A stretch of 63,992 bases of DNA, filler included, from Stramenopiles sp. TOSAG23-2 (taxonomy: Eukaryota): the NCBI GenBank assembly GCA_900128395.1. It is 9 parts of 9 records of this genome, joined end to end, with 100 filler letters (N's around TTAATTAATTAA, not from the genome) between each part and the next. Parts side by side here need not be neighbours in the genome. Positions count along the whole stretch, not along the records: positions 42,866 to 49,890 come from LT650368.1; 8 more parts are not named here. One strand, 5' to 3'. The notes under the pieces are model-generated. The model made no database searches and had not been told where the DNA came from. It saw only the letters and a list, made by a program, of their open reading frames with translations. Shown here one piece after another: positions 44,190 through 47,132 of the stretch. Within the stretch, counting starts at the first letter, position 1. Each line of letters opens with the position of its first letter. A program made the translations under genes and the position numbers.

Positions 44190-44437
44190 TTAATACAGAT
44201 TGTAAATTATGACTTCCATTGCAACCAACCCAACCCCCAGTGAGGCAAACGCACCCATCGTTTTACCTGACACGGCAGACGAATCCTACAAAGGCACGTT
44301 CGTTACTGATGTCTTAATACAGATTGTAAATTATGACTTCCATTGCAACCAACCCAACCCCCAGTGAGGCAAACGCACCCATCGTTTTACCTGACACGGC
44401 AGACGAATCCTACAAAGGCACGTTCGTTACTGATGTC
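44190..44437 (+). repeat. Exact 124-bp tandem duplication covering the histone-fusion start codon
   Basis: ttaatacagattgtaaattatgacttcc...gttactgatgtc at 44190 and at 44314. Confidence 0.9.
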
Positions 44438-46369
44438 TACAGTGTAATATCAACAGTCAAACAGCCTGATTTTTTACATTTTTCCGAAGGCGTTTACAGA
44501 GTTCTTCAGCAAGTCCATCCCGGGTTAGGGATTGATCTTGGTGCAATGTACATTATGGAAGACTTCAATCGTTACTTGCTGTGCTCCATATTGCAGCAAG
44601 CTGCTCGCTTTGCCAGTGAGAAGCGATGCCCCTCACTGGTCGATTACGTGCAGGCTCCGAATAAAAGCCAGTCAAATAATTTTGCCATCCTTGCCCAAGA
44701 TGGTGCCAGGTACTTGGTCTACCACGATTCAGAGGATGGCTTGTACGATTCAGAGTATGGCTGGGAATCCAAGCATGTTGTCCAGCAGTATTTTGAAGCA
44801 CAGCTGGCTTTGTGGGAAACCAAAGATCCGACTGAAAAGAAGAATGGCTTCGACAAGTTTCTGAAAAAAATGCGGGAAGTGGAAAGCGACAAGTTTGCTT
44901 ATCCAGGCAATATTTCCGATAGGGATATCCAAATGGCAGTTCGTCTGTGCCTGCCGGGCGAAGTGGCCAAGCACGCTGTGAGCGAGGGAACAAAGTCAGT
45001 TACCAAGTTTTCTATTGCTTGTGGAGGTATTCAGTCTCGCTCCAGTTATATTCAGTCTCGCTCCAGTTGCGCTGGTCTACAGTTCGATGTTGATCAAATC
45101 GGTGCACTTATGACCCAGGCTACCAGCATGGTTGTGACACAGAAAGCCGCTTGCTACCTCAGCGCAGTCATGGAGTACATGTCTGCAGAGGTTCTTGAGC
45201 TCAGTGGAAATGCCGCTCGTGACCTTCGAAGTGGATGGGTTACACCGCGCCACATTATTTTCGGTGTCCGTGGTGATGAGGAGCTCGATATGTTTGTGGG
45301 AAAGTGTACTGTCATGCCAGGCGGTGTGATACCACATATCCACAAATCGTTGATTCCACAGAGTTCGCATATGTTCGACATGAAGGAGGATGACGAGGAA
45401 GACGAAGATTTGGAATGGGTTGGTACCGATTCATTCATACGGGTCCCCTATCATGGAGATAACTTTGAACGAATCACCAAACATCACATTAAGCGCCTGG
45501 CTGCGCGCGGTGGCTGTGTCAAAGTGTCACGGTTGATCTACAAGAAAGTTCGTGGTGTCTCGAGAGTCTTTCTCGAATCAATTATTCGCGATGCCGTTTG
45601 TAATATAAATATGGAGAGATCAAAAATAATAGCTCCAAGGCACATTTTGTCAGCATGTGCTCGTCAGGGATTCATGCTCTGGGGCACAGGGCGTCTCCCT
45701 TTGCCTACCAAGATCATACATCCGTGCCAGCGGAAAGGTCCCGATTTGGAGAATCCAGATAGCCAACGTGGTGGTTTTTTGCATGAGTTCAGCGTGCGAA
45801 GGGCGGCAGAAGCTGCAAAACGCGCTGAAGAATTTGGTGAGCTCTTTCCATGTTCAACGCTAACTTACGCAAAGTACTCTCGCTGCGACTTCAACGGATC
45901 GATCGAAGAGCATGAGAAAAAGCTTGCTGAAGCACTAGTGGCCGCGAAGAATTTAGCAAAGGAAAAAGCACTCCAAGAGGAGGAATATGCAAAAGAGGAG
46001 GCCGAAAAAGAACGCGCACAAGAGGAGGAGGCAAAACTAAAAGAGGGATACACCTCCCCGACTGACAAGGAAAAGAAAATTCGTCGTCTCCATTCTCAGT
46101 CGCTGGAGCTGGTGCGCAAAATGCAACGAAGCACGGAGCGAGTGATTCCTTTTTTGCCGATGTCAGAAATGTGCGCTGAGATAGGTCAGGATCACATGTG
46201 TGATCTTAAGTTTAGCCATGTTGCAATAAACCTGCTCGATGAGCTTCTTGAGACGTACTTGGTTGATTTGTTTGAGGACAGCAACTCGCTAGCCATTCAT
46301 AGCAAAAGAATGGCCGTAAAGCCCAATGACATCTGGCTCGCACGCCGAATTCGTAAGGAACTCAGTTAA
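44333..46369 (+). CDS. Fused histone quadruplet H2B-H2A-H4-H3 (single polypeptide)
   Basis: H2[27 protein letters not shown] and [34 protein letters not shown]2[11 protein letters not shown]...[23 protein letters not shown]...TPRHI...GDEELD...GGVIPHIH. H4: [39 protein letters not shown]...RQG. H3: [12 protein letters not shown]...EI.QD...DLKF...[27 protein letters not shown]. Confidence 0.95.
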
Positions 46370-47132
46370 AATAAATTCTGATGATGGCCAAATCATCCAG
46401 ATACATTATCAGCAGTCAGTAATCTTGCTGATTCATTTAAAAGACGAGGTATCATAATATAAAAGAAGCTGTATATATGAATATCTTCATCAGGGCTATT
46501 AGGCTTTGATCAGTTCAGGGAAGAAACGAAGGGGAAGGCGATGTTAAAGGTGTTTGCCTTTTTCATCCAATTGTGCGACACTCGATATGTCAGGAAGGCA
46601 TGGTTCCCAATGGACAAGACTGTGCAGTGTTCCTAGAATGGGTAAAGTCGGATACAACGGACTAACAATACTTTAAAAATACAGTAGAATTTGAATTATG
46701 TGGTGCGTATTCTAGGGGAACTACTGAAATATTTTCATTGGTACGGTTTCTTGTATGTTCCAATGCATCTAAAAAGGATTGTCCACCGCGATTGAATGGG
46801 TTTGATTGCAAACCAAATAAATAAAGCTAACGAATTTGTGGTTGTTCAATTTTTATATAAAGCTTTTGTGGATATCTATAATAAAAAGATATGATAATCA
46901 AATTAATGGATGTGTGTAAAAAGGTGGAACAATTTGCAGCCACTGAAGTAAATGTGTTATGTTACATTGGATAGATGTAATAACACATTTACTTTTCAAC
47001 TTTCAACTCTGTCTTAAATAAAAATGGATATAGCGCTATATATATTATAGCTTAATATAAATAGATATCTAATACGAAGTTCGTATCATATATATAATGT
47101 ATGTATTCAACTTCCACAGAGGTTTACATGTT

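Follow-up and report, generated by a model that had tools for sequence, protein, structure and literature searches.

How did an AT-rich protist come to carry a GC-rich gene in which all four core histones are fused into a single chain, and what could such a chain do? The question is posed by the genome of Stramenopiles sp. TOSAG23-2 (GCA_900128395.1), a eukaryotic assembly of 32.8 Mb in 9,146 contigs (G000). The analysed window, 63,992 nucleotides in its full length, comprises nine unrelated contigs of ~7 kb joined by N44-TTAATTAATTAA-N44 linkers; the gene lies on one of them, the contiguous scaffold C2952 (LT650368.1) at positions 42866..49890, the rest of the window being other contigs. Its intronless open reading frame (ORF; 44333..46369, plus strand) encodes a protein of 678 amino acids in which the histone folds follow the order H2B-H2A-H4-H3, with a net charge of -10 and a pI of 6.1. 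Taken as a whole, the evidence is best explained, with modest confidence, by a foreign eukaryotic gene encoding a DNA-free nucleosome mimic.

Composition, presence and origin of the fusion gene

The ORF has a GC content of 0.480, a GC content at synonymous third codon positions (GC3s) of 0.472 and a four-fold-site value (GC4) of 0.459; GC3s is uniform along its length (0.42-0.55 over ten bins). The other ORFs measured in the window (n = 29) range from 0.12 to 0.28, while 112 host ORFs (200 residues or longer), taken from the window and 26 genome stretches, average 0.202±0.044 and reach at most 0.289, which places the fusion gene at z = 6.1 and bears out the initial annotation, where the gene was described as a GC-rich island in an AT-rich host. 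Its counts of G+C per 60-base line (24-37 against 12-23) are close to those obtained on recounting, 20-38 (mean 28.7, n = 33) for the fusion gene and 12-25 (mean 18.0, n = 22) for the downstream flavin monooxygenase-like gene (FMO). The proposed limits of the island, 44200..46400, hold for a GC-rich ORF but need revision at both ends: raised GC continues beyond the stop codon (38% to ~46814, then 26%), and a start at 44200 falls within a duplicated copy. Written in host codon usage, the same protein would have an expected GC of 0.384, so the amino-acid make-up is not the cause of the high value. The mean log-likelihood per codon is -1.39 on the host model, below all 112 host ORFs (minimum -1.09), as against -1.14 on the usage of L021, a metagenomic locus carrying a relative of the gene. 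Dinucleotide-normalised tetranucleotides (r 0.36) fall in the low tail of the host distribution (mean 0.53, minimum 0.32; 79 windows of host DNA) but still inside its range, so the foreign signal resides mostly in GC3 and codon usage, where the gene stands outside every host ORF.

Could it be an old native gene, its GC3 raised locally by biased gene conversion or expression-driven codon choice? Fused histones can be native to this host, as a second fused-histone ORF (C1929:3179-7342, L108; 1,388 amino acids, in which H2B, H2A and two H3-like folds are recognised) has a host-like GC3s of 0.19. That ORF, however, lacks the insert described below and is far more distant from the fusion gene than the metagenomic relatives are. 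The canonical histones of the host (H2A 0.22, H2B 0.28 with its upstream in-frame stretch included, H3 0.29, H4 0.27) and RPL21 are not similar to the fusion gene either, keeping to a GC3s of 0.22-0.29, and its neighbours, 0.8 kb away, stand at 0.12-0.15. With a synonymous divergence (dS) below 1 from a gene in a genome of GC3 ~0.45, a native origin appears very improbable.

Misassembly, an amplification chimera or a contaminant contig would be a more trivial explanation. The assembly is fragmented, and contigs aligned to the stretch from 4 of the 21 listed sequencing runs bear on it in both directions. Parts of the stretch occur in 20 marine run entries from 12 studies; two entries hold at least half and may be its source, run X1 among the candidates. 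X1 lacks a 124-bp duplication at the gene start, and a second upstream path exists in the assembly (C1478, see below). Nevertheless, a separately assembled X1 contig (5,698 nt; 43862-49683) runs without differing letters from an upstream repeat through the fusion gene and a short-chain dehydrogenase gene (SDR) into FMO, crossing both junctions at a flat depth of 343, and another sample (X2) holds 0.99 of the words. DNA contigs of a different study (X4) cover 44509-44783 with three differences and 45890-46159 with one, and span 46474-47064 in one piece, thereby linking the 3' stretch of the gene to the AT-rich spacer beside SDR, which they also cover at similar depth. Assembly error is thus hardly credible, and the gene is almost certainly real. 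As previously described, the SDR (47133..47948, minus strand, convergent with the fusion gene; GC3s 0.15) and FMO (48493..49866, plus strand; GC3s 0.12) are typical host genes on the same scaffold, and they are joined to it in the X1 contig. No contig bridging an empty site was found in the runs compared; in X10, SDR (47109-48397) and FMO (48409-49880) are present at ~99% identity and a depth of 6-7 and 44198-47053 is almost uncovered, a gap that was not counted as absence.

In RNA of a third study (X3), the region 44526-46855 is covered in seven pieces with 0-3 differences each, with no cover of SDR or the spacer. The pattern matches a transcript with a 3' untranslated region (UTR) of ~490 nt, although contigs cannot show level or strand. 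Across independent ocean samples, the gene is about 99-99.5% identical. Non-synonymous and synonymous differences to the environmental alleles number 4/3 in the gene; SDR has 2/5 and FMO 4/3, counts that are too small for a selection test. X4 record 28, with 8 differences in 80 nt, was taken to come from a relative, and the change seen only there, at 46243, does not enter these counts.

Proteins for comparison were picked by fold order and length: 26 long H2B-H2A-H4-H3 proteins (the fusion protein included), 17 long proteins beginning with H4, and 26 compact quadruplets (four folds in 390-620 residues, presumed viral). The first set forms one clade (FastTree 0.998, in an unrooted tree with only two canonical sets), and an insert in H2B occurs in 26/26 of its members, 0/17 of the H4-first and 0/26 of the compact proteins, as judged with a profile built from 19 of the rows. 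Seven full-length relatives share 59-65% identity with the fusion protein, and further, more distant ones exist, among them labelled choanoflagellate proteins of Acanthoeca spectabilis (P0034, a transcript) and Bicosta minor (P0266). Relatives are found on contigs of GC 0.43 to 0.72 (L021, L022, and L026), and a metagenome locus scan (at least 605 stretches, mostly ordinary H2A) yielded three family loci among 79. The H4-first proteins constitute a second class with long acidic linkers, in the order H4-H2B-H2A-H3 (e.g., P0020, P0026, P0027, P0029, P0111, and P0115); they retain 120/369 DNA contacts, have a different H2B insert and in some cases carry RING fingers.

The fusion gene groups within its metagenomic relatives (UFBoot 96), where its branch is long, at 0.43 substitutions per site. 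At L021, the relative has a GC3s of 0.48 and a neighbouring ORF 0.44, while the flanks are 31% GC; AT-rich flanks, taken earlier as a sign of insertion, are therefore not such a sign on their own. The neighbouring ORF, used as a query, was not found in the host assembly. Over 665 aligned codons, dS between the two genes is ~0.97 and dN 0.32 (dN/dS 0.33), and four-fold sites differ at p = 0.41, so that silent divergence is unsaturated. A fall of GC3 from 0.47 to 0.20 within a dS of ~1, with one gene spared, is implausible, and transfer from a lineage near that of L021 is the simplest account. Codon usage outside that of the host, unsaturated dS, nesting among relatives and physical linkage to host genes together make horizontal acquisition, proposed already in the initial annotation, probable. 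Its further wording needs qualification. "Not yet ameliorated" is nearly right, as silent GC-to-AT differences slightly outnumber the reverse (59 to 39, p = 0.054), a bias consistent with early amelioration. "Recent" holds in a relative sense only: the gene is ~99.5% identical in independent samples, and its protein has already diverged.

The gene probably entered fairly recently from a GC-richer eukaryote. The most simple route would be engulfed prey, the DNA of which was captured at a repeat-rich, rearranging locus. Prey-to-predator gene transfer is known in phagotrophic protists, and the likeness here lies in a GC-discordant intronless gene among the host genes of a marine protist. The cargo differs in being chromatin-shaped and of eukaryotic origin rather than a bacterial or algal metabolic gene, and phagotrophy of the host is assumed.

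A rival origin is an endogenised histone quadruplet of giant viruses, with a Nucleocytoviricota genome as its source or as its carrier from host to host. The lack of introns speaks for it, and metagenome-assembled genomes (MAGs) of giant viruses are the published source of proteins with four fused histones, the order H2B-H2A-H4-H3 among them, in the accessible parts of PMC9145170 and PMC11222145. On the other hand, four scans of IMG/VR returned no family member (eight loci matched the H2B-H2A part only, and the one that was read, L100, is a compact doublet), and the contig has no viral gene and no phage match, carrying SDR and FMO genes of host composition and host repeats. The family stands in a clade apart from the 26 basic compact quadruplets, which lack the insert, the fusion protein is acidic rather than basic, and the labelled members of the family are choanoflagellate proteins. 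The folds of the fusion protein are 34-74% identical to the host's own histones and 10-22% to the 18 best viral models. Given a transfer, a eukaryotic donor is thus strongly favoured, and a viral origin seems improbable. In the giant-virus MAG of L100 (L100:3-545), ubiquitin is fused to an H4-like fold, divergent from the H2B-H2A doublet.

Since entry, the gene would have changed at about double the rate of its relatives (Tajima chi2 8.8-11.3 for four of the five compared, 3.7 for the fifth). This raises the possibility of a passenger in decay, acquired by chance, transcribed, with little or no function and drifting to loss, which is compatible with the transfer itself. Besides the rate, the departures from conserved residues are spread across all domains, and in three of the four amino-acid differences to environmental alleles (A118V, V303I, and H629P) it is the environmental allele that agrees with the family. 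The 678-codon frame, however, is intact despite the branch of 0.43, through three length changes that are all in frame; the acidic patch is complete, dN/dS to L021 is 0.33, and independent samples contain both the gene and its transcripts. Decay is accordingly regarded as unlikely.

Several observations nonetheless pull against a functional gene of eukaryotic origin. The comparison with DNA context depends on a single close relative (L021, 3.8 kb), whose neighbour is a 125-residue fragment with no Pfam hit, and the close relatives are all unlabelled metagenome proteins, so no donor can be named. The amelioration signal is marginal. Of 267 columns conserved among the relatives, the fusion protein differs at 50 (the relatives themselves at 2-21), and it may be decaying in this host; a linker of ~95 residues and the basic patch before H4 are lost in the host copy. 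The nearest ESM-Atlas clusters (query P0005) are viral, if at a weak 0.86-0.87, and the RNA cover consists of contigs assembled from one library, which give no transcript ends.

Architecture and surface of the encoded protein

Within the H2B fold, helices 1-2 (residues 50-96; 44480..44620, plus strand as for all protein features) are separated by ~95 residues from helix 3 and helix C (residues 192-228; 44906..45016), which hold the equivalents of the acidic-patch residues E105 and E113. The H2A fold with its docking domain (residues 242-344; 45056..45364) has the acidic patch intact and has lost the equivalents of R29, R32, R35, R42, and R77. It is followed by the H4 fold (residues 376-453; 45458..45691) and, after a linker of ~135 residues with a long predicted helix (residues 524-570, 47 residues; 45902..46042), by the H3 fold (residues 585-677; 46085..46363), where H113, R116, D123, and L126 of the H3:H3 bundle are kept and R49, R63, R69, and R72 are lost. 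The H2B-H2A linker contains a 21-bp in-frame tandem duplication (45028..45068), also present in X1. The protein is tail-less throughout, including H3, and the acidic linker with its RHRR patch that precedes H4 in close relatives is deleted here. The model of the whole chain (mean pLDDT 68, pTM 0.60) predicts two intramolecular handshake pairs, H2B/H2A (Z 26.9, rmsd 1.5 A, 182 residues) and H4/H3 (Z 13.6, rmsd 2.7 A, 145 residues, against the Methanopyrus kandleri doublet). The C-terminal part of H2A (45250-45365) resembles H2A.Z among PDB matches, both here and in P0003, and is canonical in other relatives, which suggests gene conversion in the donor lineage, with cellular histone genes as partners.

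The surface of the protein was assessed at sites of DNA contact and of the acidic patch. Of the DNA-contacting lysines and arginines, the fusion protein keeps 8/22 and the 26 family members 158/563 (28%), compared with 429/623 (69%) in the compact quadruplets. None of the six minor-groove arginines checked is kept as arginine in the fusion protein (two are lysine), and family-wide the equivalents of H2A R29/R32/R35 are retained in 0/25-26 and those of H3 R63/K64 in 0/26. The acidic patch, by comparison, is kept at 8/8 positions in the fusion protein and at 199/208 (96%) in the family, as against 378/598 for other Asp/Glu columns; the compact quadruplets keep it too (191/208), so the patch alone is no proof of a decoy. 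The net charge of -10 lies far from that of the host's four histones (+75) and of six compact proteins (+29 to +49); the histone folds alone carry +6. Among the traits of canonical histones, the acidic patch is therefore present, while the basic DNA track, the positive net charge and the tails are all absent.

The insert (residues ~110-186; 44660..44890) lies in the H2B loop between helices 2 and 3. This loop contacts DNA in nucleosomes. The insert is itself acidic and confidently modelled (pLDDT 86) as a three-strand sheet with a C-terminal helix, as in the chromodomain superfamily. In a comparison with 48,161 chains, every one of its top 26 structural matches (26/26) has a chromo or chromoshadow domain; for 23 this follows from the title or protein name, and the other three (GEN1 twice and eEF3) are presumed to have one. 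With HP1, CHD1, Chp2, and cpSRP43 it shares the sheet, the helix and an invariant third-strand tryptophan (19/19 rows). It differs from HP1-type chromodomains in being embedded in a histone loop and in lacking a Pfam hit and the methyl-lysine cage: columns 114, 131, and 134, mapped by eye and presumably equivalent to HP1 Y24, W45, and F48, are aromatic in 0/19 rows. The module is therefore predicted to be of chromo fold but not an HP1-type reader. Even the chromo assignment is made at the level of the fold only, the best match having a Z of 5.4 (rmsd 3.1 A over 52 residues); none of the Foldseek matches is significant (E > 0.4), Pfam Chromo and Chromo_shadow gave no hit in 19 insert rows, and hhalign gives an E of 0.004 at a probability of 8%. 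Three of 15 weak PDB sequence matches are chromodomains (E 0.08-0.72), and the ESM Atlas holds no usable match.

Could the protein still be a true alternative chromatin particle, loading on DNA or nucleosomes through the insert (Sac7d/chromo-like) or a bound partner, if only loosely wrapped? All four folds and the H3 bundle residues are kept, the folds alone are slightly positive, and weak Foldseek rows for the insert include the DNA-binding Sac7d/Sso7d; according to the accessible part of PMC9145170, Marseillevirus nucleosomes tolerate the loss of some minor-groove arginines. The family-wide loss of the H2A and H3 arginines and lysines just described, a chain charge of -9 to -44 among the long-linker members measured and the acidity of the insert argue otherwise, making such a particle improbable. 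In view of a lost DNA track and an insert in a DNA-contacting loop, nucleosome-like wrapping is not expected, and the sequence probably does not encode a DNA-wrapping histone.

Gene ends and surroundings

Ahead of the ORF lie a 29-nt leader before the first ATG and a probable left breakpoint near 44180 (44180..44208, plus strand). Contig C1478 ends in the first 55 nt of the gene with the same leader back to ~44180, but attached to a different AT-rich host flank, and this flank matches (83%) the host DNA that follows FMO on C1618, where it is uninterrupted and lacks the gene. The junction of C1478 and C1618 is a breakpoint footprint near 44180, C1478 being a second allele or a second copy. A palindromic, foldback-like repeat of a family with dozens of genomic copies (C1478:335-990, L110) sits between a TPR gene and this alternative flank. 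The gene start also shows a 124-bp tandem duplication, its first copy out of frame with the ORF (44186..44309, plus strand) and its second at 44310-44433. It is an assembly artefact or a minor allele, since the X1 contig skips one copy.

On the 3' side, a single-copy stretch of intermediate GC (46370..46855, plus strand) is probably a 3' UTR that arrived with the gene. An intron within it, suggested by an X3 joint at 46426-46492, is doubtful: the ends are not GT-AG and X4 DNA breaks there too, so the joint is probably an indel allele. The EukProt model of this protein (P0001, 626 residues) was discarded, as its splice to a short exon near 46640 would cut the H3 fold and is read through by X3 contigs. 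A putative target-site duplication, TATCTAATA (44148 / 47066), is a 9-bp AT repeat of which ~2 matches are expected by chance. Around the island, no terminal repeats, target duplication, poly(A), transposase or mobility gene were found as marks of transposition or retrocopying.

The surroundings of the gene are repeat-rich and rearranged. Upstream is a nest of multi-copy host repeats (42866..43963), in which repeat A (42866-42945 and 43786-43963) is split by a non-coding multi-copy element of 840 bp (42946-43785) with 11-bp inner inverted repeats, CCCTGCCCTGA / TCAGGGCAGGG; the element also holds a 30-bp triplet and a 173-bp tandem duplication. Contigs C4333 and C1546 contain repeat A without interruption, and run X1 has both continuations. 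A 377-residue ORF on C720 (L112:1403-2533), by eye resembling a Tc1/mariner-IS630 transposase, is found near a copy of the upstream element. The 3' end of FMO has two continuations, C4333 (L109) and C1618 (L182); the former carries a gene with a caspase domain (C14) and MORN repeats and has repeat A at its end. Inverted copies of this repeat may therefore flank the whole histone-SDR-FMO-caspase block. Rfam found no match on the gene's contig, and a sigma-70 scan, a model irrelevant to a eukaryote, gave background level. Elsewhere in the host, an apparent H2A-H2A tandem ORF with near-identical halves on the H2A contig C1624 (L002:445-1161) is probably an assembly duplication.

Proposed role and its bearing on histone fusions

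As one nuclear, transcribed gene, the fusion would give rise to a chain folding independently of chaperones into half an octamer and dimerising through its kept H3:H3 bundle into an octamer-shaped particle, with the acidic-patch face retained, the basic DNA track gone and a chromo-fold module in a loop of H2B that usually touches DNA. Most likely this particle would be a DNA-free mimic of the nucleosome and engage proteins that read the acidic patch or the surfaces of histones, either as a decoy or sink for the nucleosome-binders of viruses or parasites or as a buffer for the host's remodellers and chaperones. A specific decoy or sink function is a tentative proposal. Domains added in relatives, as expected of modular mimics, include RING (P0011) and WW/Tudor (P0010). 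The relative P0275 (ENA, contigs to 16 kb) combines an N-terminal copy of the H3 tail, the quadruplet and C-terminal ankyrin repeats.

The closest known systems are the quadruplets of Nucleocytoviricota (HQA, HQB, and HQC; Irwin & Richards 2024, PMC11222145), which likewise join four folds in one tail-less chain, with H2B-H2A and H4-H3 pairs in series and predicted intramolecular pairing. According to the accessible part of that paper, they self-assemble, protect ~150 bp, have short linkers (medians of 12-56 residues) and never occur alongside other histones. The fold order of the fusion protein is that of a protein from one mimivirus-related MAG, ERX552270.89 (Talbert et al. 2022, PMC9145170), and the order is also named in available text of 10.1101/2024.12.06.627149. 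Here, in contrast, the gene is in a cellular genome that also encodes canonical H2A, H2B, H3, and H4 (C1624, C1842, C611, and C771), and its product of 678 residues, with the ~95-residue insert and the ~135-residue H4-H3 linker, is acidic, has lost its DNA contacts and is closer to eukaryotic than to modelled viral histones. In view of the host genome, the co-occurring histones, and the long linkers with a split H2B fold, it is filed apart from the viral quadruplets.

Eukaryotic counterparts are the two-fold cases SOS, ABTB2, and SPT3 (discussed in part of PMC13088155), which use fused folds for protein contacts and of which the SOS folds are said there to lack the electrostatics for binding nucleic acids; the SOS structure 1q9c matches the H2B/H2A half at a Z of 19.7. 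They differ in having two folds inside larger signalling or transcription proteins, whereas the fusion protein has all four in recognisable form, sufficient for half a nucleosome. The accessible text of PMC11222145 and PMC9145170 treats fused core histones in eukaryotes as unconfirmed or unobserved, and no eukaryotic quadruplet was found in that of PMC13525598 and 10.1101/2021.11.30.470311. A description of the insert-bearing family was likewise not found in the open-access literature, supplements aside. The repeats reported from Tara metatranscriptomes by Irwin & Richards (Extended Data Fig. 1a) may include family members.

A transcribed, anchored four-histone gene in a protist nucleus, together with its relatives, constitutes a counter-example, at the level of sequence, to the view that eukaryotes have no fused core histones, such fusions having been described only in giant viruses. 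Fusion can recur in eukaryotes, here apparently at the cost of DNA wrapping, which may rescue a ratchet for true chromatin, and a quadruplet from an ocean metatranscriptome is not necessarily viral. The locus offers a natural candidate for a DNA-free nucleosome mimic that is directly expressible and assayable, and a datable transfer of a chromatin-shaped gene from one eukaryote to another. More speculatively, and doubtful as yet, marine protists of distant groups (this host, choanoflagellates and others) might share an undescribed family of DNA-free nucleosome mimics that spreads horizontally, each mimic a single chain made of the protists' own histones and a chromo-fold insert and serving as a decoy against viruses or parasites that target the acidic patch; the present locus would then be one member caught moving between eukaryotes.

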